Shown here one piece after another: positions 22,793 through 48,166 of a stretch of 64,000 bases of DNA. The stretch's first letter is position 1. Each line of letters starts with the position of its first letter. The position numbers were made by a program, and so were the translations under genes. Source of the DNA: Hymenobacter sp. (GTDB lineage Bacteria; Bacteroidota; Bacteroidia; Cytophagales; Hymenobacteraceae); the NCBI GenBank assembly GCA_028288445.1, contig JAQBNT010000286.1, positions 57-64,056 on the forward strand, given 5' to 3'. The notes under the pieces are model-generated. The model worked only from the letters and a program-made list of their open reading frames with translations. It did not search any database and was not told the origin of the DNA.

Positions 22793-22887
22793 ATGATTTT
22801 CGTCATAACTACTTCACGGCCATGAACTACATCATGCCATGGCATGATACTAGTCATTTTAGCGAAGGGGATTGGTACTGAATTTTG
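22793..22887 (+). promoter_or_regulatory. CRP/FNR-type promoter: three boxes plus -7 element
   Basis: ATGAT-TTTC-GTCAT (22793), ATGAA-CTAC-ATCAT (22822), ATGAT-ACTA-GTCAT (22844), then GAATTTTG at 22880. Confidence 0.8.
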
Positions 22888-23035
22888 GCCCGCCGGGCTG
22901 ACGGTATTCAGTTGTTGCCCGTGTGGTGATTCGGGGAGGCGGAGAACGGGGAAGCCTGGTTTTTGATTGGCACAGCAATAGCCGCACCCGCCACCCATTC
23001 GCCTCCCTGCTGGTTCCCGTTTCCCGCCTCAGCCC

Positions 23036-23998
23036 ATGGCCGCTCCCGATACCCTGCTTAGTGCCCCGCCACGGGCGGTTGCGGAACGCTGGATGCAGCA
23101 GCTACAGAACGAGCTTTGCCGCCAGCTGACCCTGCTGGATGGGAGTGACGAAGTATTTGAGCACGACGATTGGGAGCACGCCACCGGGCACGGCAGCACC
23201 CGGGTGCTCCAGCACGGCGATGTGCTGGAAAAAGGCGGGGTGGCCTTTTCGGTGTTTTGGGGCGCGCTGGCGGCTGAAACGGCGCGGCAGCTGCGTCTGC
23301 CCAGCCCCACCTGTTTCCTGGCGCGGCTGCACGCGGTGCAGTTTCCGCGCAACCCGTGGGTGCCCATCGCGCATTTGAGCGTGCAGTATGTGGAGGCGGA
23401 GAACGGGGAAGCCTGGTTTGGCGGCAGCCTGGATTTGACGCCGGTGTACGTGGACCGGGCGCAGGCGCACTGGTTTCATGCCCAGCTGGCGGCCCTATGC
23501 CAGGCCCACAACGCCGACTACTACGCCCGGTTCAAGCCGGCGGCCGACAACTACTTTTACCTGCCCCACCGCCAGGCCATGCTGGGCATTGGCGGCCTTT
23601 ATTTCGACCAGCTGGGGGTGAATAAAGACGGCTCCTTTGCCCAGCTTTTTGCCTTTGTCCGGCAGCTGGGCCTCACCTACACCCGGCTCTACAACGTGCT
23701 GGTGCACCAGAATGCCGACCGGCCCTTCAACACCCTCAACAAACGCTGGCAGGTGGTGCGTTGGGGGCATTATGCCGAATTCAGCCTCCTGCTCGACCGC
23801 GATACCCGCCTGGGACTGGCCACAGGCGTTCCGCTCGCAAACACCTTGCTGGGCCTGCCGCCCCAGGCCGAATGGCCCGGCCAGCTGCGCCGGGAACCCA
23901 ACCTGGCCGAAGCCCAGACCCAGCAGTGGCTGCGCCCTGGCGTGAACTGGCTGGCCCCGGACCCGGAGCTGCGGGAAGGCCAACCCTCCGATTCCTGA
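23036..23998 (+). CDS. HemF-like (coproporphyrinogen III oxidase fold) protein with degenerate active site, paralogue 1
   Basis: VLEKGGVAFS, WFGGSLDLTP, YFYLPHR, GIGGLYFD recognisable; H-x-N-x-R is H-L-S-V-Q, RRGRY is RWGHY, DRGT is DRDT. Confidence 0.85.
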   Translation: MAAPDTLLSAPPRAVAERWMQQLQNELCRQLTLLDGSDEVFEHDDWEHATGHGSTRVLQHGDVLEKGGVAFSVFWGALAAETARQLRLPSPTCFLARLHAVQFPRNPWVPIAHLSVQYVEAENGEAWFGGSLDLTPVYVDRAQAHWFHAQLAALCQAHNADYYARFKPAADNYFYLPHRQAMLGIGGLYFDQLGVNKDGSFAQLFAFVRQLGLTYTRLYNVLVHQNADRPFNTLNKRWQVVRWGHYAEFSLLLDRDTRLGLATGVPLANTLLGLPPQAEWPGQLRREPNLAEAQTQQWLRPGVNWLAPDPELREGQPSDS

Positions 23999-24019
23999 AC
24001 CACCTTATCTCCTCCTGCC

Positions 24020-24724
24020 ATGCGCGCGCAAATCTGGTTACCCTGGGTGCTGGCCTCCTCCCTGCTCTGCACCGGCTGCGAAAGCCCTCGAACTGGTGAA
24101 GAAACCGATGCGCCCAGCCGGGCCGTGCCCGTGGCCACGCCGCTGCCCCCTGACACGAGTGGCCGGGCCCACCGCCCACTTCCGCCCGCGCTCCCTCTCG
24201 ACACGGAAGTGGCCGCCGCCTGGACGCGCCTGCAAACCGCCCTGCGGCGGCACGACGCCGCGCAGCTCAACCAGCTCATCGACCCCGCGCTGGGCCTGTG
24301 GGTGGTAGCGGATGGCGACACGGGCTTGGTTATCACGCGGGTGACGGCGGGCACGGCGCTGCGGAAGGCCAGTGCCCGTGCACCGCTGCTGCGCCTGGAG
24401 CAGCAGTTTCAGACGTGCCCCGCGCTGCTGGCTGTGGCCCAGTTTCCGGAAATTGACTGCGGCGACTACGGCCACGGGCGCTCCGGCTTTGCGCGGGATG
24501 GCTGCTTTGCCGGCCCGGCCGCCGACTTTCAGGCCGTGGATGTGTGGTCCCGCGCCCGGCTGGCGGGTGGCACTGCGGCCCAGGGCCGGGCAGCGCAGGC
24601 GCGGGTGGGGCGCACGGTGCTCCATACGCGCAGCGGCTGGCGGTTTCATTTTGCCCAGGCACCGGGCGCGGGCGGGCGCTGGTACCTGGTGTTCGTTGAC
24701 CTGCGCGCGCCCTGCATCAGCTGA
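24020..24724 (+). CDS. hypothetical lipoprotein
   Basis: Signal peptide with lipobox LLCTG-C; 21 bp downstream of hemF-like 1. Confidence 0.75.
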   Translation: MRAQIWLPWVLASSLLCTGCESPRTGEETDAPSRAVPVATPLPPDTSGRAHRPLPPALPLDTEVAAAWTRLQTALRRHDAAQLNQLIDPALGLWVVADGDTGLVITRVTAGTALRKASARAPLLRLEQQFQTCPALLAVAQFPEIDCGDYGHGRSGFARDGCFAGPAADFQAVDVWSRARLAGGTAAQGRAAQARVGRTVLHTRSGWRFHFAQAPGAGGRWYLVFVDLRAPCIS

Positions 24725-24754
24725 AGCGGCCCGCCCGGCCCGCGCGGGGGTCCC

Positions 24755-24821
24755 ATGACCATAATCAGGGGGTTAAACTGATTGGCATCATGCCCGGCGA
24801 CCGGCGATAACAGGAACTTTA
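24755..24821 (+). promoter_or_regulatory. CRP/FNR-type promoter: two boxes plus -7 element
   Basis: ATGAC-CATA-ATCAG (24755), CTGAT-TGGC-ATCAT (24778), GAACTTTA (24814). Confidence 0.8.
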
Positions 24822-24918
24822 GCCCACTTGCTATCGGCGGCGGCCGAGCCGTGCTGCCCGGTTGATACTGGTATTCAAACCAATGTTTTTCAGTCACTTA
24901 TTTTCTTTCTCAGCCGCC

Positions 24919-25215
24919 ATGAAAACAACCACGAAACCGTTTCGAATGCGAAAGCCAGTCCTCCTGCAATGGTCGGCGTTTGGGGCGAGCGTCCTGGCCG
25001 GGCTTACGGCGGGGGTGCTGTGGGCTCCGGCTTCGGGGCAGCACTCCCGCGGCCGGCTGGCCGCCGGCATCCGGGACTGGTCGCGCAGCGTGGCCGGCCG
25101 CTGGAACCTGTGGCAGCCCTGGCCGCTGGCCCGGGCCACCCGGCACCGCGTGCCCAATATTCTGCGCTCCAACGACCTCGCCATGCAGCCCAACCGCCTG
25201 CTGACCGAAGATTGA
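24919..25215 (+). CDS. YtxH-like small protein
   Basis: FGASVLAGLTAGVLWAPASGQHSRGRL resembles the YtxH signature G..AG...G.L.AP..G...R. Confidence 0.65.
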   Translation: MKTTTKPFRMRKPVLLQWSAFGASVLAGLTAGVLWAPASGQHSRGRLAAGIRDWSRSVAGRWNLWQPWPLARATRHRVPNILRSNDLAMQPNRLLTED

Positions 25216-25429
25216 AACCGAGCTACCTCCTTTCCCTCTTGCCATCGAATTCAAAGCGGCCCAACGGCCACTACTCCGGCATGGACGGGCAGTCTGCGAT
25301 GGCTGCCCGCCCTCCGGTAATTACCGCAACGCCGATGTACCCGGCGAGCCACAGCTTCTGGGCGGCCTTCGGCTTTCAGCAAATAAGACTGGCTTTTCTC
25401 CCTTTTTCTGCATTTAACACCCTTGTTCT

Positions 25430-26263
25430 ATGAAACCGGCTTTTGTTGTCCTCACCGATTTATCGGCCGCCGCTGGCGATGCGCAGGCCTACACGGCCCG
25501 TCTGGCCGCCCGCCTGCACGGCTGCATGGTACTGCTGCACGTGTACCTGAACCTGAACCCGCTGCGCGACCCCGAAGAGTTGGTGCTGACCACCGCCGCC
25601 GAGTTGGCCGGCCGCCAGAAAATGCAGACCGACTTGCAGCAGCAGGTGCGCCAACTGCCCGTGCCCGCCGAGGCTGAGCTGTCGTTCGACCCGCTGGCCT
25701 CGGCCGTGGACAAGGCCGTGCGCCGCCACCAGCCGCTGCTGCTGGCCATGGGCCGCGCCGCGCACCCCGGCCGGCTCGACCGCCTGCTGCCCAACGAGGT
25801 GGAGCCCATCCTTCAGGCCACCCACTACCCCCTGCTGCTGGTGCCCGAGGGCTGGGCCGAAACCGAGCTGCCGCAGCGCATGCTGGTGGCCGCCGATGGG
25901 CGCGCCTTCACGCTGGCCGCCCCGGCCCTAGCCCTGCGGGAGCTGCTGCTGACCTTACAGCCCACCACTGCCGTGGCCCACGTAGCCCACGAAACGCACG
26001 GCCCCTCGCACGGCGACGTGGCCCTGAAATCGGTGCTGAGCACGCAGCTATTCGGGCACCTCACCAACAACAGCCTGTATGAAGTGCGCGAGGAAGCCCC
26101 GGCCGACGGCATTCTGCACGCGGCGGCCGAGCTTAACAGCCAGCTGATTGTGATGCTGGCCCGGCCCCACACCTTCCTCGGCGGGGTTTTCCACCGCAGC
26201 GTGACGGCGCAGGTACTGCACCGCAGCCCCGTGCCCGTGCTGGTGCTGCCCACCGTGGCCTGA
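25430..26263 (+). CDS. universal stress protein (tandem USP) 1
   Basis: FVVLTDLS N-terminal strand, PLLLVP, C-terminal FLGGVFHRSVTAQVL..SPVPVLVLP. Confidence 0.92.
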   Translation: MKPAFVVLTDLSAAAGDAQAYTARLAARLHGCMVLLHVYLNLNPLRDPEELVLTTAAELAGRQKMQTDLQQQVRQLPVPAEAELSFDPLASAVDKAVRRHQPLLLAMGRAAHPGRLDRLLPNEVEPILQATHYPLLLVPEGWAETELPQRMLVAADGRAFTLAAPALALRELLLTLQPTTAVAHVAHETHGPSHGDVALKSVLSTQLFGHLTNNSLYEVREEAPADGILHAAAELNSQLIVMLARPHTFLGGVFHRSVTAQVLHRSPVPVLVLPTVA

Positions 26264-26289
26264 GGCTGCGTCACCCTAACTTCTGCCCT

Positions 26290-27228
26290 ATGCTTACGCC
26301 CGTAAAGCCCCATCACCAGCAGCCCCACTCCGTGGAATCGCCCGTGGGGAAAGTCCCGGTTCCTACGCTAATTGTGCTGACCAGTTTTTTCCCGGAAAGC
26401 CGCCGGGCCCTGCGGTTTGCCGCCGAACTGGCCGGCCCGCTGGCGGCCCCGCTGGTGCTGCTGCACATTGATGCGATGGCTGCACAATACCCCAACGTGC
26501 CGATGGCAACCGCGCCCGCCGACCGCCGTGAGCTGCGCCACGACTTGCAGCAGCTCGCCGATGAGTTGCACCGGCCCGCCACCATTGAGCTGGCCAGTGG
26601 GATGCTAAGCCGCGTGTTGGCCGACGCGGCCCACCGCCACGCCCCGGCCCTGTTTGTGCTGGGCCGTCCCGCCGATGAGCAGGCCGATTTTGAGCTGAGC
26701 GAGGCGATGGTGGCCGAGCTGCGCGCCGCCCACCTGCCTCTGCTGCTGGTGCCCGAAGTGTACGCCGGCCCCGACCTGCCCCAGCACCTGGCCGTGGCTT
26801 CCGACGACGAGCCCTTTGCCCTGCACGCCGGGGCGCAGGCCGCCCAGCTCCTGCTGCGCCAGCTGATGCCCAGCCAAGTAACGGTGGTGGCCGCCTCGCC
26901 TTTGCAGGACGACAACGTGTGCGCCGCCGCCCTGCACCACGTCCGCACCAGTGGCCTGCTGCCCACGCCCGGGCCGGTGCCCACCGTGGAGGGCTTTTAC
27001 GCCACCCAAACCGAGCAGGGCCTGCTGCACGCCATTGCCACCACGCAGGCCGACTGGCTGGTGCTGCTGGCCCACCCGCGTCGCTACCTCGACCAGTTGC
27101 TGCACCACAGCATTACGAAACGCATGTTGCGCTGGAGCCCGGTACCGGTGCTGGTGGTGCCCTCCCAAACGGCCCGCAGCCGGCCCTCCAAACGCTCTAC
27201 GCAGCTGAACAACGGCTTCCTTATTTAA
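26290..27228 (+). CDS. universal stress protein 2
   Basis: LIVLTSFF, PLLLVPE, YLDQLLHHSIT..ML..SPVPVLVVP. Confidence 0.9.
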   Translation: MLTPVKPHHQQPHSVESPVGKVPVPTLIVLTSFFPESRRALRFAAELAGPLAAPLVLLHIDAMAAQYPNVPMATAPADRRELRHDLQQLADELHRPATIELASGMLSRVLADAAHRHAPALFVLGRPADEQADFELSEAMVAELRAAHLPLLLVPEVYAGPDLPQHLAVASDDEPFALHAGAQAAQLLLRQLMPSQVTVVAASPLQDDNVCAAALHHVRTSGLLPTPGPVPTVEGFYATQTEQGLLHAIATTQADWLVLLAHPRRYLDQLLHHSITKRMLRWSPVPVLVVPSQTARSRPSKRSTQLNNGFLI

Positions 27229-27271: not shown

Positions 27272-27688
27272 ATGGAATCCATCACCACATCCGCCCCCAA
27301 GATGGCGATAGCCGAAACCACGGCCGCTTTGTCCAATTCAGCGCTCACGCCCTCGGTGGCTGAACGGCTGGCGCAGCTTCTGAGTTCGTCGGTTAATGCC
27401 CAAACCATCTACGGCACGCCCGTGGAGCGCGACAGCGTGACGGTGATTCCCGTGGCGCAGGCGGCCTATGGCTTTGGCGGGGGCAGCGGCACCGGCCCCA
27501 ACGCGCAGGGCGGCACGGGCGGCGGCGGCGGCGTGCGCCTCAAGCCGGTGGGCTTCATCGAGCTGAAAAAAGGCCGCAGCCGCTTCCGGCCCATCCGGCG
27601 CTCGGTAGTCCCGCTGGTGGCCGTGAGCGGGCTGCTGGCACTGCTGCTGCTACGCGCCGTGCCCCGGCTGTTGTCGAACGGCCGCTAG
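27272..27688 (+). CDS. GerW/YtfJ family (spore germination-like) protein
   Basis: IYGTPVERDSVTVIPVAQAAYGFGGGSG...GGGGGV.LKPVGFIE signature. Confidence 0.85.
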   Translation: MESITTSAPKMAIAETTAALSNSALTPSVAERLAQLLSSSVNAQTIYGTPVERDSVTVIPVAQAAYGFGGGSGTGPNAQGGTGGGGGVRLKPVGFIELKKGRSRFRPIRRSVVPLVAVSGLLALLLLRAVPRLLSNGR

Positions 27689-27792: not shown

Positions 27793-27836
27793 TTGATTCT
27801 CGTCATACTCCGCGCCGAATGGTTTTTCTATTTTTA
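27793..27836 (+). promoter_or_regulatory. CRP/FNR-type promoter: box plus -7 element
   Basis: TTGAT-TCTC-GTCAT (27793), TATTTTTA (27829); weak upstream box AAGAT-TGAA-ATCAG at 27771. Confidence 0.72.
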
Positions 27837-27900: not shown

Positions 27901-28167
27901 ATGAAAAACACCGCGCACCGACAACCGCAAAAGACGACCGAGGATGCTCGGGTCCACCTGACCGGCCTGAGCGCCAAGTACGTGCGCAAGCTGGAAAAGC
28001 CCTTGGTAAACACGCTGCGGAAGCTCAGCCGCAAGTTCAGCAAGCTGCTGGATAAAAACCGCAAGGCCGCCCGCAAGGCCACTCGCGAGGCGGCCAGATT
28101 CCTGGTGAAGCGGCTGTATAAATCCGTGGAGTGGCGCGGCGCTGGCCCGGCCCTGCGGCCGGCCTGA
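27901..28167 (+). CDS. small highly basic hypothetical protein
   Basis: 88 aa, Lys/Arg-rich helical sequence, GC3-biased codons, first gene behind a regulon promoter. Confidence 0.7.
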   Translation: MKNTAHRQPQKTTEDARVHLTGLSAKYVRKLEKPLVNTLRKLSRKFSKLLDKNRKAARKATREAARFLVKRLYKSVEWRGAGPALRPA

Positions 28168-28223
28168 CCCCTACAGGCGTGGGCGCGGCTGCCGTGGTGG
28201 CGCGCCCGGCCCTGCTGCGCGCC

Positions 28224-30239
28224 ATGAACCACTCTCTACTCTACGATTTGCTGGTTATCCTGCTGTTGTCGGTGAGCGTGACGCTGCTGTTCAACCGCAT
28301 CCGGCTGCCGTCCATCATCGGGTTTCTGGTGACGGGGATGCTGGCCGGGCCCTACGCGCTGGGCCTGGTGAAGGTGCCCGCCAAGGTGGACCAGGTCGCC
28401 GAAATGGGCATTATCATGCTCATGTTCACCATCGGGCTGGAGTTTTCGGTGCAGAACCTGGGCCGGATGCGGCGGGCGGTTTTTCTGGGGGGCACGTTGC
28501 AGGTGGGCCTCACGGTGGCGGCTGTGGCGGTGCTGGGCATGGCCATGGGCAGTTCGCTCGGCTCAGCCGTGTTCTGGGGCTTTTTGCTGTCGCTCAGCAG
28601 CACGGCCATTGTGCTCAAGCTGATGCAGGAGCGCATGGAAGTGGAGTCGGTGCACGGGCAGATTGTGCTGGCCATCCTGCTGTTTCAGGATTTGGCGGTG
28701 GTGCCCATGATGCTGCTTATTCCGCTGCTGAGCGGGCAGGGCAGCGGCGGCAACCAATTTCTGGTGCTGGGCCTGATGGTGGCCAAAATCCTGGCCGTGG
28801 TGGCCATGGTGGGGCTGAGCGCGCGCTACCTCATGCCGCGCCTGCTGCTGGCCGTAGCCCGCACCCGCAGCCGCGAGCTGTTCCTGCTCACCATCATCGG
28901 CACCTGTTTGGGCGTGGCCGTGCTCACGGAACAGGCGGGGCTGTCGCTGGCGCTGGGGGCCTTTTTGGCGGGGCTCATCATCTCGGAATCCGAATACAGC
29001 TACGAGGCCGTGAGCAGCGTGCTGCCGTTTCGGGAGGTGTTTGCGAGCTTCTTTTTCGTGTCCATCGGCATGTTGTTCGATGTGCACGTGCTACTGGCCC
29101 ATCCAGTTCAAATCGTGCTGCTCACCATCGGAGTCATCTTGCTTAAAATGCTGCTGACGCCGGTTGCCACGGCCTTTTTGCGCGCGCCGGTGGGCGAAAT
29201 TCTGTTTACCGGCATGGCCCTGGCGCAGGTGGGCGAGTTCGCGTTTGTGCTCTCGCGGGAGGGCCTGCGAGCCGGCCTCATCAGGCCCGATAGCTACCAG
29301 ATTTTCCTCGCTATTTCGGTGCTCACCATGTGCTGCACGCCCGGCGTGATGGCCCTGGCGCGGCCCGTGGTGGCGTGGGTGATGCGCCTGCCGTGGCCCC
29401 TGGAGCTGGAGCAGCGCCTGCACGTGGCACCTGTCCCGCCCCCGCCGGCCGTGGCCACAGCCGGGCCGCCGCTCACCGACCACCTCGTCATCGTGGGCTA
29501 CGGCCTGAACGGGCGCAACCTGGTGCGGGCCGCCAAATTTGCCAAGCTCCCCTACATCATCCTCGAAGCCGACGCCGACAAAGTGCACCGGGGCCTGAAG
29601 CGCGGCGAGCGCATGATGTACGGCGACGTAACCCACGAGCACGTGCTGGAGCACCTGGGCGTGGTACGGGCCCGGGTGGTGATGGTCGCCATCTCCGACC
29701 CCGCCGCCGCGCTGCGGGCCGTGGCCGCCATCCGGCGGCTCAACCCCTTGGTGTGCATTCTGGTGCGCACGCTGTACGTGTACGAACGCAAAAACCTCTA
29801 CCACGTAGGTGCTACCGAGGTAATTGCGCAGGAACAGGAAACCTCCATGGAGGTACTGGCGCACGTGCTGGCCCGTTTTCTGGTGCCGCAGGACGACATC
29901 GAAAAGCTCATCGGCGAGCTGCGGCACGGCAGCCACGCCATGCTGCGGCCCCACTCGCTCACCAAAGCCGCCTGGGCCAGCATTCACCTCGGGCTGACCG
30001 GAGCCGAGTTGGCCGCCGTGCCCGTCGAGGCCGACCCGCAAACCTGCCTGCACGGCCAGGTTTTGTCGGAGGCCGAGCTGCGGCGACGCTTCGGGCTCTG
30101 CCTGCTGGCCATCCGGCGCGACGGCGCGATGCTGGAACCGGTGACGAACGAAACGGCCATTCTCCTGCACGACACGCTCTACGTTTTCGGCAAGCCGGCC
30201 CAGGTAGCGCAGCTGCTACAGGTGGTGGAAGCGGCCTGA
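28224..30239 (+). CDS. CPA2 (KefB/KefC/YbaL-like) cation:proton antiporter with RCK N and C domains
   Basis: AEMGIIMLMFTIGLE, LSLSSTAIV, ILLFQDL, LGAFLAG, FFFVSIG, QVGEFAFV, IVGYGLNG (GxGxxG), C-terminal TrkA-C. Confidence 0.93.
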   Translation: MNHSLLYDLLVILLLSVSVTLLFNRIRLPSIIGFLVTGMLAGPYALGLVKVPAKVDQVAEMGIIMLMFTIGLEFSVQNLGRMRRAVFLGGTLQVGLTVAAVAVLGMAMGSSLGSAVFWGFLLSLSSTAIVLKLMQERMEVESVHGQIVLAILLFQDLAVVPMMLLIPLLSGQGSGGNQFLVLGLMVAKILAVVAMVGLSARYLMPRLLLAVARTRSRELFLLTIIGTCLGVAVLTEQAGLSLALGAFLAGLIISESEYSYEAVSSVLPFREVFASFFFVSIGMLFDVHVLLAHPVQIVLLTIGVILLKMLLTPVATAFLRAPVGEILFTGMALAQVGEFAFVLSREGLRAGLIRPDSYQIFLAISVLTMCCTPGVMALARPVVAWVMRLPWPLELEQRLHVAPVPPPPAVATAGPPLTDHLVIVGYGLNGRNLVRAAKFAKLPYIILEADADKVHRGLKRGERMMYGDVTHEHVLEHLGVVRARVVMVAISDPAAALRAVAAIRRLNPLVCILVRTLYVYERKNLYHVGATEVIAQEQETSMEVLAHVLARFLVPQDDIEKLIGELRHGSHAMLRPHSLTKAAWASIHLGLTGAELAAVPVEADPQTCLHGQVLSEAELRRRFGLCLLAIRRDGAMLEPVTNETAILLHDTLYVFGKPAQVAQLLQVVEAA

Positions 30240-30255: not shown

Positions 30256-31038
30256 CTAAAGCAACCGCAGCTGGTCGACCAGGATTTCCTGCACATCGGT
30301 GGGGCGGATGATGCCGCGGCGGGGGCGGTCCAGCTCCAGCGTGATGAAAACCACCAACGTCACCATCAGGTGGAAGGTGACGATGGCCATCCAGTCGAAC
30401 CGGGCGCGGTTGGCGCTCACGTAGCCCGAAAAAAAGGCCGTGATGAGGGCAATGATGAACAGCATATACATCACGGCATCGGGCACATGCACGCGCAGCG
30501 AGGCTTGGCGGGTCACCCCGTTCACCGTCACTTCGTTCAGTGCATCCACCATTTTATCGGTCGCCATGGCGTACTGCGGGTTGCCCGACAGTCGCACCAC
30601 CCGGTGCCACACCTGGTTGCTGGCCGTATCGGCATGGACCAGCGTGGCCCTGATGGTCGTCGAATCATCGGGGGCCTCGCCGAAGGCAATGCGCGCCTCC
30701 AGGTAGCGGCGCAGCTCCCGCCGGAACCCGGCGCGCTCGGGGTTGGGGTAGAGGTCGGCCCGCAACACCACGGTGCGGAAGCTGGCGGCCAGGGCCACCA
30801 GGGCATCGCGTCGGGCCTCGAAGCGGGCGCTGGCCATCGAAAACGAGAAGGCCAGCAACAAGCCCTGCAACGCCAGCAGCGAAGCCACGGCCACCGACTG
30901 CTCGGTGGTGTTGGTGATGTAGGATTTGCGGCGGCGGCCCTCCCACAAGCCGGCCCAGGTCAGGAGCAGCAGCAGGCCGAAGAGCATGAATACCAGCAGG
31001 CGCGAATCGGTGCGGTACAGCAGTGAATATTCTCTCAT
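30256..31038 (-). CDS. DUF4239-like (bestrophin-like) membrane protein
   Basis: LLALQGLLLAFSFSMASARFEARR, R.ELRRY, TLELDRPRRG motifs; start could be 31131 or 31038. Confidence 0.75.
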   Translation of the reverse strand: MREYSLLYRTDSRLLVFMLFGLLLLLTWAGLWEGRRRKSYITNTTEQSVAVASLLALQGLLLAFSFSMASARFEARRDALVALAASFRTVVLRADLYPNPERAGFRRELRRYLEARIAFGEAPDDSTTIRATLVHADTASNQVWHRVVRLSGNPQYAMATDKMVDALNEVTVNGVTRQASLRVHVPDAVMYMLFIIALITAFFSGYVSANRARFDWMAIVTFHLMVTLVVFITLELDRPRRGIIRPTDVQEILVDQLRLL

Positions 31039-31284
31039 CAGTCCCTGGCTCAAATCACCGAAAACCCCATTCATCAGCAGGAAACCGTCTTGCTGGCCGG
31101 GCCAGTCAGGGCCGTCGATGAAAGGCATCATGGTATTGCCGGCAATTTCTTCATGCGGTGAATATCAACCCCATAAAGGCGGCAATACTTAATGAAAATC
31201 AGGTCATCACCTATTCATTGTTCTGTTTTTTCCCGAAAGCTCCGCCGGGTCGATTTTGCCATTCAGCGGCCTGCGCCCGATGAT

Positions 31285-31350
31285 GTGATATAAATCAAGT
31301 GGTAAGCTGATTGTATTCAATGCACTGCCCACTGTAGGGACGGAAATTTG
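31285..31350 (+). promoter_or_regulatory. CRP/FNR-type promoter: two boxes plus -7 element
   Basis: GTGAT-ATAA-ATCAA (31285), CTGAT-TGTA-TTCAA (31307), GAAATTTG (31343). Confidence 0.8.
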
Positions 31351-40264: not shown

Positions 40265-40330
40265 CTGACAGGAATCATCCTGCAAGGTGATACGCGTCAG
40301 GGTGGTATTAGCGCAAAGGCAGGAGCTTTG
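40265..40330 (+). promoter_or_regulatory. CRP/FNR-type promoter: two boxes plus -7 element
   Basis: CTGAC-AGGA-ATCAT (40265), GTGAT-ACGC-GTCAG (40287), GAGCTTTG (40323). Confidence 0.82.
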
Positions 40331-40466: not shown

Positions 40467-41405
40467 ATGAAACAGCAGGCTATTTCGACATCGGCTTTTA
40501 CGCCGCGCCCGGAGGTCGAGAATTGGATGCGGGAATTCCAGGACTGGCTATGCCACCGACTGGAGCTGGCGGATGGCGGCAGCCGGTTTGTGCACGAAGA
40601 ATGGACGCACCCCGGCGGCGGTGGGGGAATCACCTCCACGCTTCAGCACGGGGCCGTGCTGGAGAAGGCGGGCGTGTCCTTTTCGGCCGTGTGGGACCAG
40701 CTGAGCGAGCCGATGGCCCGCCAGCTCCAGGTGAAAGACCGGCACTACTACACCGCTGATGTGAACGTGGGCCTGCATCCGCACAGCCCCATGGTGCCCA
40801 TTTCGCATCTCAACGTGCGGTATTTCGAAGCCCGCACGGGCGAGGCCTGGTTTGCCGGCAGCCTGGACCTGACCCCGGTTTACGTGGATGTGGTGCAGGC
40901 CCGCTGGTTTCACGAGCAGATTCGGGCTATGTGCCACCGCCACGATACCGGCTACTACCCGCGCTTCAAAGCCGGGGCCGATGCCCATTTCTACCTGCCC
41001 CACCGGGGCGAAACGCGGGGCGTGGGCGGCCTGTATTTCGAGCAGCTTATGGTGGAGCGCGACGGCTTGTTTGAGGAGCTGCTGGCCTTCGTGCAGGACG
41101 TGGGCGAGGTGTACGGCCGCGCCTACGGCACCATCATGCGCCAGAATGCCCACCTGCCCTACGCCGCGCCCGAGAAGCGCTGGCAGCAGCAGCGCCGCGC
41201 CCGCTGCGCCGAATTCAACCTGACCGTGGACCACCCCAGCCGCTTCGAGCTGGCCGCCCACGGCCCGGAAGGTTTCGTCCTCAGCCTACCTCCACGGGCC
41301 GAGTGGCACAATGCCCCTGCTCCCGCCCCCGACTCGGCCGAAGCCCGGACCCAGCAATGGCTGCGCCCCGGCGTGGACTGGATAACGCCCACCGGCGCGG
41401 CCTGA
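40467..41405 (+). CDS. HemF-like protein with degenerate active site, paralogue 2
   Basis: GGGGG, VLEKAGVSFS, LHPHSPMVPISHLNVRYFE, RGETRGVGGL kept; GVS is DVN, RRGRYVEF is RRARCAEF, DRGT.FGL is DHPSRFEL. Confidence 0.87.
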   Translation: MKQQAISTSAFTPRPEVENWMREFQDWLCHRLELADGGSRFVHEEWTHPGGGGGITSTLQHGAVLEKAGVSFSAVWDQLSEPMARQLQVKDRHYYTADVNVGLHPHSPMVPISHLNVRYFEARTGEAWFAGSLDLTPVYVDVVQARWFHEQIRAMCHRHDTGYYPRFKAGADAHFYLPHRGETRGVGGLYFEQLMVERDGLFEELLAFVQDVGEVYGRAYGTIMRQNAHLPYAAPEKRWQQQRRARCAEFNLTVDHPSRFELAAHGPEGFVLSLPPRAEWHNAPAPAPDSAEARTQQWLRPGVDWITPTGAA

Positions 41406-41459: not shown

Positions 41460-42416
41460 ATGTCCCTGGTAGCCACCCTGACGCTGAACCCGGCCCTGGA
41501 TACGAGCACCTCCGTGGCGGGCATCGTGCCCGACCAGAAGCTGCACTGCGCCGCCCCCAAAACCGAGGCCGGCGGCGGCGGCATCAACGTGTCGCGGGGC
41601 CTGCACCGGCTGGGCACGCCATCGGTGGCTGTGTACCCGGCGGGGGGGCACACGGGAGTGCTGTTGGAAGCGCTGCTCACGGCCGAAGGCATTGCCTCCT
41701 GCGTAATTCCGACCCAAAGCGCGGTGCGCGAAAACTTTGTGGTGGTGGATACCGCCACCCACCAGCAGTACCGTTTCGGCATGCCCGGCGCGCCCCTCAC
41801 CGACGTTGAGCAGCAGCAGATACTGGCGGCGCTGCACCGGCTGGTACCGCTGCCCGACTTCGTGGTGCTGAGCGGCAGCCTGCCGCCCGGCGTGCCACCC
41901 GCATTCCTGGCCCAGGTGGCGCGGCAGGCCCGCGAGGCGGGTAGCAGGGTGGTGGCCGATACGACCGGGCCGGCCATGCTGGCCGTTATCGAGGCCGGGG
42001 CCTACCTCATCAAGCCCAACCTGGGCGAGCTGAGCCAGTTGGCCGGCGTGCCCGAGCTGGACAACGCCGGTGTGGTGGCCATCGCCCGGCAGCTCATCGG
42101 CGCGGGCCGCTGCGAAATCGTGGTGGTGTCGATGGGCCCGCAGGGGGCCTGTCTCGTCACCCGCGACCTGGAAGACCAGATTTCGGCCCCGGTCGTGAAG
42201 CGACGCAGCACCGTGGGGGCTGGCGATAGCATGGTGGCTGGCATCGTGCACGCGCTGGTGCTCGGGCAGCCCCTGCGCGAAGCTGTGCGCCTGGGCGTGG
42301 CCTGCGGCACGGCCGCCACCATGAACCCCGGCACCGAGCTGTTCCACCCCGCCGATGCGGAAAAGCTCTATCGCTGCCTGCTGCAGGCCATGCCCGCCCC
42401 GCACCCCACCGCCTGA
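41460..42416 (+). CDS. pfkB: 1-phosphofructokinase family hexose kinase (PfkB/Pfk-2)
   Basis: TLTLNPALD, GGGGINVSR, SGSLPPGVP, IKPNLGEL, STVGAGDSMVAG. Confidence 0.93.
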   Translation: MSLVATLTLNPALDTSTSVAGIVPDQKLHCAAPKTEAGGGGINVSRGLHRLGTPSVAVYPAGGHTGVLLEALLTAEGIASCVIPTQSAVRENFVVVDTATHQQYRFGMPGAPLTDVEQQQILAALHRLVPLPDFVVLSGSLPPGVPPAFLAQVARQAREAGSRVVADTTGPAMLAVIEAGAYLIKPNLGELSQLAGVPELDNAGVVAIARQLIGAGRCEIVVVSMGPQGACLVTRDLEDQISAPVVKRRSTVGAGDSMVAGIVHALVLGQPLREAVRLGVACGTAATMNPGTELFHPADAEKLYRCLLQAMPAPHPTA

Positions 42417-42456: not shown

Positions 42457-43344
42457 CTACGCCTCGGCGGCATCTGAGGCAATGGACGCATCCTGCGGCA
42501 CCTCGGCGGCGGTGGGCAGCACCAGCACTGGCACGGGGCATTGCTCCACGAGCCGGGCCGTGATGCTGCGATGAAACAAGTCGCTCATGAAGCTGCGCTC
42601 GCGGGCCAGGGTGATGACCAGGTCGGCCCCAACTTCCTGCGTGGCGATGAGCATGCCCTCGGCGTAGTCGCTGTTGAGGTAGCCCCGCAGCTCGGGGTGG
42701 GTGAAGTCGACCAGGCCGCTGACGCGCACGGCCCGCAGGGCGGCCGCGCAGCCATCGTCGTCCTCCACCCCGTCCGACACATGGGCTACCACCACGCCGC
42801 CCGTGCCCAAGTGGGCCAGCAGGGGGCGCAACGCCTGAGCAGCCGGCCCGAGGGCAAACGGCTCACGGTCGGCCGCAATCAGGAAGCGGTGCGGCGGCTG
42901 GTTGGCGGACGTGGTGGTGGGCACGGCCAGCACCGGGTAGTGGCCGGCGCGTAGCAGCTCGGCGCACAGGGCCGTCATGCCAGCGTAGTCGGGATGGTCG
43001 GCATCGGGCTGGCCCAGCACAAACAGGGCCGGGGCGTAGCGGGAAGCCAGCTCGCGGGCGATGTCGGGGAGCAGGTCGGTGGCCATTTCCACGGCGGCGG
43101 GCACGTGCAGGCTCCGCGCCAGCTGGTGCAGGGCCACCACGGTATCGGACTGGCCGGCCAGCTCCTGGCGGTGGTACTTCTCCCCCACCGCGCCCACCAG
43201 CTCGTAGGGGTCGAGCAGCGACGCCCGGTTGACGTGCAGCAACACCAGTTGGGCCTGCACGGCCTGCGCCAGCTTATCGGCGTAGTGAATGGCGTGCCGG
43301 GCGGGCTCGTAGAAACCGGACAGCACGATGAGCGTGAGGGGCAT
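42457..43344 (-). CDS. universal stress protein 6
   Basis: LIVLSGFY, YPVLAVP, SFMSDLFHRSITARLVEQCPVPVLVLP. Confidence 0.9.
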   Translation of the reverse strand: MPLTLIVLSGFYEPARHAIHYADKLAQAVQAQLVLLHVNRASLLDPYELVGAVGEKYHRQELAGQSDTVVALHQLARSLHVPAAVEMATDLLPDIARELASRYAPALFVLGQPDADHPDYAGMTALCAELLRAGHYPVLAVPTTTSANQPPHRFLIAADREPFALGPAAQALRPLLAHLGTGGVVVAHVSDGVEDDDGCAAALRAVRVSGLVDFTHPELRGYLNSDYAEGMLIATQEVGADLVITLARERSFMSDLFHRSITARLVEQCPVPVLVLPTAAEVPQDASIASDAAEA

Positions 43345-43358: not shown

Positions 43359-44243
43359 TTAGTGAGTGACGGGGATGAAGGCCCGCGTCTCGACCGGGGC
43401 AAAAACTGGGGCGGAAATGTGGGCCGAGAGCAGCAGTACGGGCACCGGCGTGTGGCGCAGCACATAGTCGATAACACTGCCGCTGAACAGCTTGTGTGCC
43501 CAGCCGTGGCCCTGGTCGAGCAGGGCCACCAGGTCGGCTTTCAGGTCATGCACGGCCTCCAGAATGCCCGAGCCGGGCTCCTCGCCCACTACTTTGTGCA
43601 GGCCGCAGCCGGCCATGCCAGCGGCCAGGCCGCTGTGCTGCGCGGCCCGCAGGCCGTCCCAGCCGCCGGGGCTGTCTGCTTCCGATAGCACGGTGACGGC
43701 TACCACGTCCAGGCCCAGCCCGTCGAGCAGGGGCGCGACGGCCCTAGCAGCCGGGGCCAGCCGGAAGGGCCGGTCCTCCACGGCCAGGGCCAGGCGGCGG
43801 GGCTGGTGCAGGGCGGCATCGGGCAGGTGCTCGGGCACGAGCAGCAGCGGGCAACCCGTTTGGTGCGGCAGCGACGCAGCGCGGTTGCTGAACCACTCGT
43901 CGAGGAAGCCATTGGTGGCGGTGAGCCCGGCCACGATGAGCATGGGCTGATATTTTTCGATGGCTTGGGCAATGGCCCCGGGCCAGTCGGCTTCCAGCAC
44001 TTCGGCGGTGGTGGGCACGGGCATGGTTTCGGCTACATGCCGCAGGCAGCGGCAGGTTTCGGGCACGTAGCCCTCATCCTTGGCCGGCAGCACCATGCCG
44101 AATTCCGTGACCACGGGCACCGGCAGAAACACGTGCACGAGGTGGAGCTCGGCATCCAGCGGGGCGGCTAGCACGGCGGCGTAGGCTCGGGCCCGCTCGG
44201 CGGCGAGCGAGAAGTCAGTCAGCACAACGATGTTGGGGAACAT
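43359..44243 (-). CDS. universal stress protein 7
   Basis: MFPNIVVLTDFS, CPLLLVPE, KLFSGSVIDYVLRHTPVPVLLL. Confidence 0.92.
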   Translation of the reverse strand: MFPNIVVLTDFSLAAERARAYAAVLAAPLDAELHLVHVFLPVPVVTEFGMVLPAKDEGYVPETCRCLRHVAETMPVPTTAEVLEADWPGAIAQAIEKYQPMLIVAGLTATNGFLDEWFSNRAASLPHQTGCPLLLVPEHLPDAALHQPRRLALAVEDRPFRLAPAARAVAPLLDGLGLDVVAVTVLSEADSPGGWDGLRAAQHSGLAAGMAGCGLHKVVGEEPGSGILEAVHDLKADLVALLDQGHGWAHKLFSGSVIDYVLRHTPVPVLLLSAHISAPVFAPVETRAFIPVTH

Positions 44244-44296
44244 GACAGACAATCAGCTAAAAGTGAGACAACAGCAATGAGCAGCGCACCGAGGCT

Positions 44297-45811
44297 TTAG
44301 CGAATGGCCGTGGCCGCGTGGGTGGCCACGACCTGCCGGGCAGCTTCCTTTTCGGCTTCGGCAGCCAACCCGGCCAGGGCGGGCAGGGTGAACAGGCGGC
44401 CGCGCAGCACCACCGCCTGAATCAGGCGCAGGTTGCGGATGTCGTCGAGCGGATTGCCATTGAGCAGCACCACATCGGCCGCGTAGGCGGGGCGAATGCG
44501 GCCCGTGTCGAAGCCGTGGCCGGTGGCCATGGCCGGGTTCACGGTGCCGGCGCGCAGGGCTTCGGCCGGCGTGAGGCCAAGGGCCACCAGGCGCTCCAGC
44601 TCATCGTGCAGACTACCGCCGTAGAAGAGGTTTGGCGTGCCCGAGCCGGCATTGGAGCCCGCCACCAGGCGCACGCCCAGCCGCCCAAACGTGGCCACCA
44701 TGCCGCGCTGCAAGGAATCGGCGACGCGGATTTTAGCCAGCCTAGAGGCCGACAGGTGCGGCCGGTCGTGGGCGGCCTGCGCCCACTGCCGGCGCAGGTT
44801 GGCCGGCACCGAGCGAAAGCGCGGGTCTTCCGGGGCGGGGTCGTGCCGCAGGTCGAAGTCGTGGGCCACCAGCCCGGGCATCACCGCAGTGCGGTTCTGC
44901 ATCAGGGCCTGGGCCAGGGCCGTGCAACGGGCGGGGCTGAAGCTGGCCACGATGTCCTTTTGCTGAGCTTTGATGCCGGCTTGCAGCGTGGGCAGGGGCC
45001 GGGGGCCGGCCAGGGCCGTGGCCCGCGCCGCCACCAATTCAGCCTCATGGTCGGAGCAGGCCAGCAGCAGCTTGTCGGCGTGCTCGATGCTATGCTGACC
45101 GGCCGCAATGGCATCGAGCACCGGCACGGCCTCGGGCACGGTGCCAGCCAGATGCACCCGCCCCAGACGGGCAGCAGCGGCAATCCCCGCAAAGGCCTCG
45201 GGCGACAGGTACGCGCCGGCTTGCAGGCTGCACCAGCCCGTTCGCATCAGGGCTTCGGCCCGGGCGTAGCCCTCGGCGCGGGTGGCCGTGAGGGTCAGAC
45301 TGGTGCTGGCATCGGCCGAACCGTCGAGGACCGGGCCGGCCAGCTCAAGGTGCGGCCCCACCCGCTCGCCGGTTTCCAGGGCCTGGTAGGTGCTTAGCAG
45401 GTCGGCCAAGGGCCGGGCCGAACTCACGTCGCGGATGCTGGTGATGCCGTGGGCCACGTACAGCGGCAGGGCCAGCTGCTCATCGGCGGCCGAGGCCAGG
45501 GCGTGGGTGTGGAAATCCCAAAGGCCGGGCACCAGGTATTTGCCGGTGCCGTCCAGGGTGGGCACGCCCCGGCCGGCCGGCAGCCACTGGCCCACCGACA
45601 CAATGAAGCCGTCGCGCAGCACCACGTTGCGGTGGGTTTCGATTTCGCCCAGGTCAACGTCCACCACGTTCACGTTGGTAATCACCAGCTCATCGACCGG
45701 CGGGGGCGCGATGACCGGGGGAATAATGACCACCGCCGGACGCTGCCCGGCAGCCAAGTGCCCCGAGCAGCTCAGCCCCAGCAGCAACCCCAGAAAAAGA
45801 CGCGGTTTCAT
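44297..45811 (-). CDS. secreted amidohydrolase-fold protein with degenerate metal site
   Basis: Signal peptide; LDGTGKYLVPGLWDFHTH, SIEH, SLHDEL..LV..GLTP.EAL, ADVVLL.GNPL.DI; Lys, His and Asp ligand positions read Q, T and N. Confidence 0.88.
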   Translation of the reverse strand: MKPRLFLGLLLGLSCSGHLAAGQRPAVVIIPPVIAPPPVDELVITNVNVVDVDLGEIETHRNVVLRDGFIVSVGQWLPAGRGVPTLDGTGKYLVPGLWDFHTHALASAADEQLALPLYVAHGITSIRDVSSARPLADLLSTYQALETGERVGPHLELAGPVLDGSADASTSLTLTATRAEGYARAEALMRTGWCSLQAGAYLSPEAFAGIAAAARLGRVHLAGTVPEAVPVLDAIAAGQHSIEHADKLLLACSDHEAELVAARATALAGPRPLPTLQAGIKAQQKDIVASFSPARCTALAQALMQNRTAVMPGLVAHDFDLRHDPAPEDPRFRSVPANLRRQWAQAAHDRPHLSASRLAKIRVADSLQRGMVATFGRLGVRLVAGSNAGSGTPNLFYGGSLHDELERLVALGLTPAEALRAGTVNPAMATGHGFDTGRIRPAYAADVVLLNGNPLDDIRNLRLIQAVVLRGRLFTLPALAGLAAEAEKEAARQVVATHAATAIR

Positions 45812-45868
45812 GGCCGGATACAGGTTAAAAAGTAGGGTTGCAGACAAAACCAGTGAAGCCCGGCCAAT

Positions 45869-46051: not shown

Positions 46052-46083
46052 TCATCGCCTTGAAATAGAGATGATTTGTACCA

Positions 46084-46127
46084 CAATGTTCGTCAACCCA
46101 CGCGCCCGAACCCATGACAAAAATCAA
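46084..46127 (-). promoter_or_regulatory. CRP/FNR-type promoter for the small ORF-amidohydrolase-USP7-USP6 unit
   Basis: Box ATGAC-AAAA-ATCAA (46114-46127); minus-strand GAACATTG at 46091-46084, 22 bp away (one extra mismatch). Confidence 0.6.
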
Positions 46128-46288
46128 GGCTTCGACTAATAATGCGCAGGGCATTGCGGCACGGCGGGCCGGTTCTTTGCACTCAGATTCCGCCTTTTCC
46201 CGGCTGGATTATGGATTATTGCCCGGCACGCGCGCAATCCTGCTGGCGGCAGGCCCATTCGCATTCGGGTATTTCCCCTGCCGATGTC

Positions 46289-48166
46289 ATGGCTGAGCCC
46301 ACGCTGCCTGTTTCGGTTGCTCCCCGGCACAGCCCCGACCTCGACGGGCTGCTGGCCGAGCTTGCCACCGTGCGCGCCGAAATGGTGGCATTTGCTAAGC
46401 AATGCGCTGAACACCTGAAGCCTGTTCACGCAAATTTTCAACTGGGGGCCCGCAACCTGTTGCACTACCTGGCCCTGCGCCAACGCGACCTGCGCCCCCT
46501 GCAATACCGCCTCGCCGAGCTCGGCCTCTCGTCCCTGGGCCGGGCCGAGGCCCACGTCCTGGCCAGCGTGGAAGCCGTACTGACTGTGCTGCACGCCCTG
46601 ACGCGACTCACCGCCACGGGGCCGGTTGAGCCGAATGAAACCGGCCCCACCTTCAGCAGCGGCCCGCGCCTGCTGGCCGAGCACAGCACCGCCTGCCTAG
46701 GGCCGACCCCGGCCGAGCGCGATGTGCGCATCATGGTGACCATGCCCAGCGAGGCCGCCACCGACTATGCTTTGGTAGAAGAACTGCTACGGCAGGGCAT
46801 GGACTGCCTGCGCATCAACTGCGCCCACGACGATGTGGCAGCCTGGCAGCAAATGATTCGGCACCTACGCCGCGCCGAGCAGGCCCTGGGCAAGTCCTGC
46901 AAGGTGAGCATGGACCTGGCCGGCCCCAAGTTGCGCACCCAGGGCCTGCCGCCCGGCCCGGCCGTGCTGCCGATTAGCCCGAAGTTTGATGCCTTTGGGC
47001 GCAAGCGGGCCCCGGCGCGGGTGTGGCTGAGCGCCGCTGAGCCGCCCACGGCGGCCCCGGCTCCGGCAGTGGCCCGGCTGGCCTTCCCCGCGGCCTGGCT
47101 GCCGGGCCTGCACGTCGGCGAGGCCATTGCGTTTGTGGATGCGCGGGGGCGGCGGCGCAAGCTGCGCATAAGCAGCTGTAGTCCCGAAGGCTGCTGGGCC
47201 GAGCTTCGCAAGACAGCTTATATCACGCCATTCACGCAGTTTCGGGGGCCGGGCGGAATGGCTACGATTCAGCACCTGCCCGCGCTGGAGCCGTTTATCC
47301 TGTTGCGGCCCGGCGATAGCCTGCTGGTGCGCCGCTGGCCGGCCGGCGGCGGGGCGCTGCCCGCCCCAGCGGCGGTGGATGGTGAAGCCGCGGCGGCCAT
47401 TGGCTGCGCGTGGTCCGGGGCATTCGACTACGTGCGGGCCGGCGAGCCCATCTGGTTCGATGACGGAAAGATTGGCGGAGTCATCGAGCAGGTCGGGCCC
47501 GAGGGCTTGCGGGTGCGCATCACCCAGGCCCGCCCGGAGGGCGAGAAGCTGCGCAACGACAAGAGCATCAACTTACCCGAAAGCCAGCTGCCCCTCGCGG
47601 CCCTGACGGAAAAGGACCGGCGGGACCTGGCCTTCGTGGCCCAACACGCCGACCTGGTGGCCCTCTCCTTCGTGAGCTCGGCGGCCGACGTGGAGCAGTT
47701 GCGGCAGGAAATCAGCCGCCTCACGGACCGGGAGCTGCCCATCATCCTCAAAATCGAAACGCGGCGAGGCTTCGAGCAGCTGCCGGCCCTGCTGCTCAGC
47801 GCCATGCAGGCCAGCAGCTGCGCGGTGATGATTGCCCGCGGCGACCTGGCCGTGGAATGCGGGTTTGAGCGCCTGGCCGAAGTGCAGGAGGAAATCCTGT
47901 GGCTGTGCGAAGCCGCCCACGTCCCGGTCATCTGGGCCACGCAGGTGCTGGAGAGCCTGGCCAGGGGTGGCATGCCCTCCCGCGCCGAAATCACCGACGC
48001 CGCCATGGGTGACCGCGCCGAGTGCGTGATGCTCAACAAGGGGCCACGGGTGGTAGAAGCCGTGCGGATTCTGAGCGGGATTCTGCGGCGTATGCAGGCC
48101 CACCAGCGCAAGAAAAGCGCCATGCTGCGCGGACTGCGCGTGGCCCAGGCGTGGCCGGGGGCCTAA
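46289..48166 (+). CDS. pyk: atypical pyruvate kinase (N-terminal extension, long B domain, no C-terminal regulatory domain)
   Basis: LRINCAH, DLAGPKLRT, LKIET, MIARGDLAVE, WATQVLES, PSRAEITD, ECVMLNKG; start taken at ATG 46289. Confidence 0.9.
   Translation: MAEPTLPVSVAPRHSPDLDGLLAELATVRAEMVAFAKQCAEHLKPVHANFQLGARNLLHYLALRQRDLRPLQYRLAELGLSSLGRAEAHVLASVEAVLTVLHALTRLTATGPVEPNETGPTFSSGPRLLAEHSTACLGPTPAERDVRIMVTMPSEAATDYALVEELLRQGMDCLRINCAHDDVAAWQQMIRHLRRAEQALGKSCKVSMDLAGPKLRTQGLPPGPAVLPISPKFDAFGRKRAPARVWLSAAEPPTAAPAPAVARLAFPAAWLPGLHVGEAIAFVDARGRRRKLRISSCSPEGCWAELRKTAYITPFTQFRGPGGMATIQHLPALEPFILLRPGDSLLVRRWPAGGGALPAPAAVDGEAAAAIGCAWSGAFDYVRAGEPIWFDDGKIGGVIEQVGPEGLRVRITQARPEGEKLRNDKSINLPESQLPLAALTEKDRRDLAFVAQHADLVALSFVSSAADVEQLRQEISRLTDRELPIILKIETRRGFEQLPALLLSAMQASSCAVMIARGDLAVECGFERLAEVQEEILWLCEAAHVPVIWATQVLESLARGGMPSRAEITDAAMGDRAECVMLNKGPRVVEAVRILSGILRRMQAHQRKKSAMLRGLRVAQAWPGA

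Follow-up and report, generated by a model that had tools for sequence, protein, structure and literature searches.

A stress-protein island of Hymenobacter as a probable arm of a multi-locus, low-oxygen regulon with REC-CRP/FNR regulators

Gene content of the island

We analysed a 64-kb window (~64% G+C) of Hymenobacter sp., taken from contig JAQBNT010000286.1 of assembly GCA_028288445.1, and focused on the island at positions 22793–48166, in which genes for universal stress proteins (USPs) surround a sensor kinase and a response regulator that joins a receiver (REC) domain to a CRP/FNR-type output. A first-pass annotation made from the sequence alone had described a stress island under common control in a Bacteroidota, and our results support this description for a Hymenobacter (Cytophagales). 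We consider it probable that the island is one arm of a multi-locus, low-oxygen regulon read by REC-CRP/FNR regulators.

Genes were called from open reading frames (ORFs) rich in G+C at the third codon position (GC3), and the proteins of the window were scanned against Pfam and NCBIfam profiles. The scan recovered the inventory of the first-pass annotation: seven USPs, PfkB, pyruvate kinase, a six-BON protein, a GerW-like protein, a Kef-type antiporter, two HemF-like proteins, and the kinase-regulator pair. All seven USPs are two-domain (tandem) proteins. A YtxH-like protein had also been listed; its ORF (24919–25215) is present, but the match to the family is weak (E 5.5e-4, under the Pfam cut-off).

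The kinase gene (37574–39190, PAS-PAS-HisKA-HATPase) and the regulator gene (39168–40220, REC-cNMP_binding-HTH_Crp) overlap and, like all genes listed here unless indicated, lie on the plus strand. The left part of the island begins with the first HemF-like gene (HemF1, 23036–23998), whose product has the coproporphyrinogen oxidase (CPO) fold, and the gene for a 234-aa protein with a lipoprotein-like N-terminus (24020–24724), which matched no family in Pfam or NCBIfam. They are followed by the gene for the small, YtxH-like membrane protein, two USP genes (25430–26263 and 26290–27228), a Spore_YtfJ/GerW-like gene (27272–27688), a small basic orphan (27901–28167), the gene for the Kef-type CPA2 antiporter with TrkA_N and TrkA_C domains (28131–30239), and a bestrophin-like membrane protein gene on the minus strand (30256–31131). 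Further along lie the genes for the six-BON protein (31478–32935), two USPs (32971–33798 and 33989–34837), an 84-aa orphan (34898–35152) and an MlaE permease (35247–36017), and a minus-strand USP gene (36121–36975) with a likely start at 36975. To the right of the kinase-regulator pair we found the second HemF-like gene (HemF2, 40467–41405), the gene for a PfkB-family hexose kinase (41460–42416; TIGR03168, 289 bits against a cut-off of 216), and a minus-strand operon encoding an amidohydrolase with a signal peptide (44297–45847) and two USPs (43359–44252 and 42457–43344). The last gene of the island encodes a long-form pyruvate kinase of the PRK14725 type (ORF 46142–48166; NF011314, 764 bits against a cut-off of 642).

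The bestrophin-like, MlaE and amidohydrolase genes were absent from the first-pass list. Only the two ends of the amidohydrolase match amidohydrolase models. The 234-aa protein has a 52%-identical paralogue adjoining a canonical HemF on another contig of the genome (C228). A 201-aa ORF (24828–25433) of odd composition and low GC3 was rejected in favour of the overlapping YtxH-like ORF, and is probably not a gene.

The limits of the island had been placed correctly, since the genes on either side of it serve polysaccharide utilisation; they encode LacI and a chondroitinase-B-like lyase to the left of the island, and BNR_4 and GH43 proteins to its right. The polysaccharide neighbourhood on the left is accessory. 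A search of 30 relatives at an E-value cut-off of 1e-80 gave no orthologue of its PL6-like lyase (18990–22710), and the BNR_4 gene of the right flank was never near the regulator in these genomes. When synteny was traced via the long pyruvate kinase, a comparable island was absent from 18 congeners; four of the 18 have the long pyruvate kinase, beside at most one or two USPs.

A composite promoter shared across the island

The first-pass annotation had proposed a promoter motif common to the whole island, and such a motif exists far above chance: TGA-N6-TCA was observed 28 times in the window, with 5.7 occurrences expected. Intergenic TGA-N6-TCA boxes are paired with a period of 22–23 bp. They belong to a composite design consisting of a box, 10 nt, a second box, 23 nt, and the Bacteroidota -7 element, the octamer nAnnTTT[GA]. 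At six promoters, the -7 element begins exactly 23 nt past the proximal box; at a seventh, it lies 45 nt (23 + 22) past a lone distal box. The scan of the window tolerated small departures from the composite pattern. It yielded nine composite sites in the 64 kb, every one in the island, between 22845 and 46137, and the design was not found in the window outside the island.

Promoters P1 to P6 are on the plus strand. P1 (22794–22887) has an extra box (22794–22805) in addition to the distal (22823–22834) and proximal (22845–22856) ones, with the -7 element GAATTTTG at 22880–22887, and heads HemF1 and the 234-aa lipoprotein-like gene. P2 (24756–24821) combines boxes 24756–24767 and 24779–24790, which follow a 23-bp period, with the -7 element GAACTTTA (24814–24821) and heads the YtxH-like gene, two USPs and YtfJ. 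The small orphan and the Kef antiporter are headed by P3 (27772–27836), where the proximal box (27794–27805) is accompanied by a distal box with one mismatch and the -7 element TATTTTTA (27829–27836). P4 (31286–31350; boxes 31286–31297 and 31308–31319, -7 element GAAATTTG at 31343–31350) heads the six-BON protein and a USP. The kinase-regulator operon itself is headed by P5 (37316–37380; boxes 37316–37327 and 37338–37349, -7 element TACCTTTG at 37373–37380), an autoregulatory position. P6 (40266–40330), which consists of boxes 40266–40277 and 40288–40299 and the -7 element GAGCTTTG (40323–40330), heads HemF2 and PfkB.

Two sites depart from this arrangement. The minus-strand USP gene at 36121–36975 has a single-box promoter on the same strand, with the box at 37130–37141 and the -7 element CAGTTTTA at 37099–37106. 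P7 (46084–46179) is a bidirectional, relaxed match with an exact box at 46115–46126. On its plus strand, a degenerate proximal box (46137–46148) and the -7 element GTTCTTTG (46172–46179) head the pyruvate kinase gene; on its minus strand, the -7 element GAACATTG (46084–46091) heads the amidohydrolase-USP-USP operon. Because the plus-strand -7 element sits at 46172–46179, the pyruvate kinase probably starts near 46289, within the ORF that opens at 46142.

A two-sided arrangement was also seen elsewhere. At C228:44988-45021, a -7 element lies at the exact offset on either side of one palindromic box pair, and thus one tandem site serves two divergent promoters. The same arrangement occurs in several relatives, e.g., G002:C22:81485-81580 and G006:C1:4000932-4001027. 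The box of P7 at 46115–46126 seems to be a degenerate version of such a two-sided tandem site.

The centre of the proximal box lies 29.5 nt ahead of the -7 octamer. Judging by this geometry, the proximal box would be near -42, the position of class II CRP/FNR activators, in place of the -33 element.

A repeat hairpin (33835–33929) lies between two USP genes and is made of a 32-nt inverted repeat, 97% complementary, with a 31-nt loop. Its 18-nt core, GCTGAGCGCAGTCGAAGC, is present in 57 copies on 39 contigs of the genome; the hairpin is therefore a dispersed element resembling repetitive extragenic palindromes or miniature inverted-repeat transposable elements (REP/MITE-like). Within the BON-USP-USP-MlaE stretch, it could serve as a terminator or as a processing site.

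The response regulator

The pairing of a FixL-like PAS kinase with a REC-CRP/FNR hybrid regulator, as the first-pass annotation had it, agrees with the profile matches. The regulator consists of a receiver (PF00072, 91.4 bits), a cyclic-nucleotide (cNMP)-binding barrel (PF00027, 77.9 bits), and a Crp-type helix-turn-helix (PF13545, 62.1 bits). At least 90% of the family share the receiver residues D52 (in CDIMMP), T82 and K101. The recognition helix reads PESLIRTLSEF in the window regulator, with ESLIR conserved throughout the family. The window regulator is 80–81% identical to the regulators of H. monticola and H. artigasi.

NCBIfam has no dedicated model for this protein; among its models of stand-alone CRP/FNR proteins, FixK scores best. 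RefSeq names for the regulator are "response regulator" or "transcriptional regulator". The regulator lacks the Cys cluster of FNR: its N-terminus is occupied by the receiver, and its single Cys is C51. Cyclic-nucleotide input is not proposed either, because the cNMP-contacting Arg is not conserved in the regulator family. From its domains, the regulator would functionally merge the roles of FixJ and FixK. In the literature searched, we found no paper on a Bacteroidota REC-CRP/FNR regulator or its kinase module. The RgzAB system of Flavobacterium johnsoniae, described in a preprint, is not the same system, as its kinase is an unrelated hybrid and its regulator is CheY-like.

The regulon beyond the window

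The island had been called self-contained, which did not hold at the scale of the whole 5.5-Mb assembly: the genome has three paralogous kinase-regulator pairs, and the promoter code is present at four loci. Box pairs with a spacing of 22–23 bp were counted 11 times in the genome; the counts for all other spacings up to 60 bp were 0–2. Offsets of 23 and 45 nt between a box and the -7 element were found 16 times each, and other offsets 1–7 times. The strict composite was detected at 18 sites genome-wide, and at 0 sites with each of six control offsets. The 18 composite promoters are spread over five contigs. A ccoNO gene is split between the ends of contigs C256 and C228, which joins the two; the five contigs therefore represent four loci.

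The kinase and regulator paralogues on contig C116 are 68% and 79% identical to the window pair, and those on C256 are 60% and 70% identical to it. The three regulators do not differ in the recognition helix, ESLIRTLSEF, and should therefore recognise the same boxes. The joined C256 and C228 locus has the order kinase, regulator, fixI (fixI/ccoI), ccoNO, FixH, DsbD_2, USP, HemF (the canonical copy), paralogue of the 234-aa protein, divergent USP, cation ATPase. The C116 locus contains four USPs and an L,D-transpeptidase. The fourth locus, on contig C84, contains Hsp20, a second six-BON protein, two USPs, phosphoketolase, a cation ATPase, MlaEFD, another L,D-transpeptidase, and a probable truncated haemoglobin. 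In total, the genome encodes 15 USPs, all at the four promoter-bearing loci and eight of them outside the window.

Spread of the module across Bacteroidota and its link to oxygen

A scan of one genome per species yielded at least 593 relatives of the regulator, found in Hymenobacter, Spirosoma, Rudanella, Chitinophagaceae, Cyclobacteriaceae and others. We compared the loci of the best 80 of these relatives. The kinase adjoins the regulator in 76 of the 80 loci, and the promoter architecture recurs around them: the offset of 23 was found 64 + 42 times, the offset of 45 was found 51 + 68 times, and the spacing of 22 was found 27 + 41 times. The first genes behind 99 such promoters were led by ccoNO (20), a fixI-type ATPase (9), and L,D-transpeptidase (YkuD, 5); fewer promoters preceded USP (4), the kinase itself (4), 2-hydroxyacid dehydrogenase (3), or globin (3).

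The occurrence of the composite promoter was then related to that of the regulator in 31 related genomes. Sites were present in 16 of the 18 genomes with the regulator (78 sites) vs. four of the 13 without it (6 sites), and many of them flank the regulator gene. The reversed-pattern control gave 0 sites in all 31 genomes. With 12 exact sites, the genome studied here has the most among the 31. The distribution of the regulator among congeners is patchy, with 1–3 copies in 12 of 18. A chance neighbourhood, in which the motif similarity carries no regulatory meaning, can scarcely be credited: 18 real sites stand against none at the control offsets or with the reversed pattern, and the architecture is conserved over Bacteroidota families.

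The module is tied to oxygen because its orthologues adjoin ccoNO/fixI, truncated haemoglobin and hemF genes with the same promoter upstream. On the H. swuensis plasmid pHsw1, for example, the kinase and regulator are followed by two truncated haemoglobins, fixI, ccoS, ccoN, ccoG and FixH, and the order continues with USP, hemF, adhP, USP and hemA. Since the cbb3 oxidase and fixI are the targets met most often, low oxygen would be the ancestral signal. Data from Flavobacterium psychrophilum under O2 limitation, in which cbb3 oxidase and haem-synthesis genes were strongly induced (PMC9723704), fit the oxygen link.

Large plasmids of several Hymenobacter and Runella strains carry the module together with cco, haemoglobin, USP and hemF genes: NZ_CP007144.1 (L099), CP014769.1, NZ_CP114768.1 and NZ_CP030856.1. 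One of these plasmids was typed as mobilizable.

The sensor kinase and the signal

The kinase is composed of PAS-A, a FixL-like PAS-B, HisKA and HATPase domains. Its HisKA and HATPase_c matches exceed the respective cut-offs, its H-box is SHEFRTPL, and no NCBIfam model is specific to this kinase. The best matches of PAS-B among solved structures are all haem-PAS domains, namely FixL (E 5e-11) and DosP/EcDOS. In an alignment of 76 kinases of the family, the position of the FixL proximal His (P+7; BjFixL His200) is His in 66, and further pocket positions are conserved as well (R198 in 65, R208 in 69, and M210 in 64 kinases). The C256 kinase, beside cco, retains the full haem-PAS signature including the proximal His and is the predicted canonical sensor. 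A few matches are labelled as metagenome-assembled genomes of Rhodanobacter, Bacteriovorax, Halobacteriovoraceae, Azovibrio or Akkermansia (L019, L046, L055, L076, L079). The kinase tree places L019 within Hymenobacter, so at least the L019 contig looks mis-binned.

The first-pass annotation had a gas sensor running the island. The FixL-like nature of the kinase family agrees with this, but the copy in the island lacks the proximal His and the Met. Its PAS-B domain matches 27 of 30 family-conserved positions, has a His two residues before Leu194, and has R214 aligned with the distal Arg220 of BjFixL.

Several observations weigh against the assignment of the island to a low-oxygen regulon of the REC-CRP/FNR regulators. 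The window kinase has L194 for the proximal His and T210 for the Met, and the substitutions suggest that its input may not be O2. The C116 kinase departs from the family at five conserved positions, all in the pocket segment (H194Y/R198H/R208Q/M210L/G211D), and is 85% identical to its H. artigasi orthologue overall vs. 53% across the 30-residue pocket segment. None of the seven His-less kinases lies beside cco, compared with 36 of 66 others (Fisher p = 0.011); His-less kinases being never cco-linked, the island may answer a signal other than oxygen. The BON, Kef, YtxH and YtfJ proteins would be just as much in place in a response to osmotic stress or desiccation. In the window scan, neither a composite promoter for the bestrophin-like gene nor a promoter for the run of genes that begins with the USP at 33989 and ends with MlaE was detected. 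Lastly, a stand-alone CRP-family protein encoded at the C84 locus (about 21397–21954 of that contig, minus strand) could be a second reader of TGA-N6-TCA boxes; its gene sits between two box-bearing promoters.

One alternative is that the island is a general dormancy, desiccation or osmotic module that has only the DNA code in common with the oxygen regulon. Its kinase would sense a non-oxygen cue (redox, a metabolite, light or envelope stress) via PAS-A or the remodelled PAS-B. The replaced His and Met and the separation of His-less kinases from cco speak for it, as does the presence of the six-BON (OsmY-like) protein, Kef, YtxH- and YtfJ-like proteins and MlaE in the island. We nevertheless hold it to be unlikely, if deserving of serious attention. 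As the three regulators have the same recognition helix, the boxes of the island should also be activated by the canonical oxygen-sensing pair, and low O2 induces the same gene classes in Burkholderia cenocepacia (PMC3721108). In the kinase tree, moreover, the window and H. monticola kinases are sisters, as are the C116 and H. artigasi kinases. The H. monticola and H. artigasi kinases, the nearest orthologues, both retain the His and adjoin fixI and ccoNO; the losses in the window and C116 kinases are therefore recent and independent.

It is improbable, in our judgement, that the boxes are read by another CRP/FNR protein, such as the stand-alone one of C84, with the REC-CRP regulator being one input or binding elsewhere. 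TGA-N6-TCA is a generic CRP/FNR core, and the C84 gene, with the recognition helix VRETASRF, adjoins Hsp20 and the probable truncated haemoglobin as well as the box-bearing promoters. The composite, however, tracks the REC-CRP regulator across genomes, clusters beside it and precedes its own operon. The C84 protein is just 33–34% identical to the CRP part of the regulator and has no N-terminal Cys cluster for O2 sensing.

The HemF-like proteins of the island were assessed via the CPO motifs, which are intact in the other two HemF copies of the genome (C228 and C28) and in a solved CPO structure. HemF1 has substitutions in GGGGGR, HPxNP and RGIGG and scores under the NCBIfam HemF cut-off; in HemF2, DRGT reads DHPS. 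GGRTES is degenerate in both. On the strength of these motifs, HemF1 and HemF2 may not be active oxidases. A more far-reaching proposal is that, once the module had duplicated, two kinases independently lost haem ligation in favour of another cue, with three pairs converging on one code, and that the HemF-like proteins are sensors or buffers. As a joint claim we find this doubtful. Within it, the HemF-like proteins could keep a porphyrinogen-binding fold and be tetrapyrrole- or O2-linked without being enzymes.

Proposed regulation and its significance

Under the reading that we prefer, in which the island is one arm of a low-oxygen regulon, the phosphorylated REC-CRP/FNR regulator would be the most likely binder of the boxes and would activate the genes behind them; homology, promoter architecture and the co-occurrence of the two across genomes point this way, and they likewise point to oxygen as the signal. 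Two regulator dimers would bind on the same face of the DNA, the proximal box at the class II position replacing the -33 element, and all three regulator paralogues would read one box code. The module would represent a Bacteroidota-wide, two-protein equivalent of FixL-FixJ-FixK with low oxygen as its ancestral signal. The island in the window would be a lineage-specific expansion of its survival arm (USPs, BON, Kef, PfkB, pyruvate kinase, and HemF-like proteins), with the lxa locus of B. cenocepacia and the DosR regulon of mycobacteria as its functional analogues. Hypoxic induction of the island would proceed mainly via the canonical kinase beside cco, and the kinase of the island, with its remodelled haem pocket, probably contributes a different or modified input.

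Aerobic Bacteroidota of soils and surfaces must endure anoxic spells, and their sensing of and response to such spells are poorly described. The module studied here is present in hundreds of species, and its exact, searchable promoter code could make whole low-oxygen regulons readable from Bacteroidota genomes. The regulon of this Hymenobacter, the largest in the 31 genomes compared, offers a natural experiment with three converging pairs, two of which have remodelled pockets. Its main value lies in the combination of a widespread, uncharacterised regulator module, an exact promoter code, and the remodelling of a sensor pocket.

Comparison with known systems

The first-pass annotation knew of no characterised system with such a composition. 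The lxa locus of B. cenocepacia is one, and it is the nearest known counterpart of the island (Sass et al. 2013, PMC3721108). This locus comprises 50 genes that are 2- to 240-fold upregulated at low oxygen, and encodes six USPs, alpha-crystallin, two "phospholipid-binding" proteins, a PfkB-family kinase and a cation ATPase, with Anr-like CRP proteins and two-component systems as regulators (PMC3721108). A TGA-N6-TCA motif is present at 17 intergenic points of lxa, and more co-regulated loci exist elsewhere in the genome; deletion of lxa led to a survival defect after anoxia, and the authors themselves listed the overlap with DosR (PMC3721108).

Both the lxa locus and the island have clustered USP, BON and PfkB genes under a TGA-N6-TCA motif, CRP/FNR-type regulators and two-component genes inside the locus, and additional co-regulated loci. 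In this comparison, we take the "phospholipid-binding" annotation in lxa to denote BON-type proteins. The alpha-crystallin and the cation ATPase of lxa have their counterparts here at other loci of the regulon. The two systems also differ. The lxa locus is proteobacterial and its candidate regulators are stand-alone, Anr-like proteins, whereas here the CRP/FNR part is fused to a receiver and would be driven by a PAS kinase. Rigid tandem boxes locked to a Bacteroidota -7 element are found only here, and of the two loci only the Hymenobacter island has HemF-like proteins, pyruvate kinase, Kef and YtfJ. The induction of lxa and its role in anoxic survival were demonstrated experimentally, whereas the Hymenobacter island is known from its sequence.

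With the FixL-FixJ-FixK cascade, the module has in common a PAS kinase family with the FixL haem signature, phosphotransfer (predicted here) to a receiver, and an FNR/FixK-type box (TTGAT-N4-ATCAA core). The ccoNOQP and fixGHIS targets are common too, in orthologous modules and at the third locus of this genome. In contrast to the cascade, three proteins are reduced to two, as the receiver is fused to the FixK-like part and a LuxR-type FixJ output is missing. The window kinase, moreover, has no proximal His, and the targets in the window are stress proteins and not an oxidase.

Convergence of the gene content on the mycobacterial DosR regulon, which the first-pass annotation had pointed out, is supported. 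The DosR regulon includes tandem USPs, pfkB, alpha-crystallin, a cation ATPase (ctpF) and nitroreductase, and is controlled by a haem-sensor two-component system (PMC3721108). All of these gene classes occur in the Hymenobacter regulon or its orthologues: seven USPs and PfkB in the window, and Hsp20, two cation ATPases and eight USPs elsewhere in the genome. However, DosR is of the NarL/LuxR type and DosS/DosT are GAF-haem sensors, whereas the output here is of the Crp type and the sensor is a PAS kinase; the DNA motifs are not the same and the regulators are not homologous. The resemblance to DosR is thus one of convergence, not membership, and the theme common to DosR and lxa (USPs, PfkB, BON, Hsp20, cation ATPase) reaches a third phylum under unrelated regulators. 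A low-oxygen island of USP, PfkB and BON genes was already known from lxa; what is different here is the regulator architecture, the tandem-box promoter, and the phylum.

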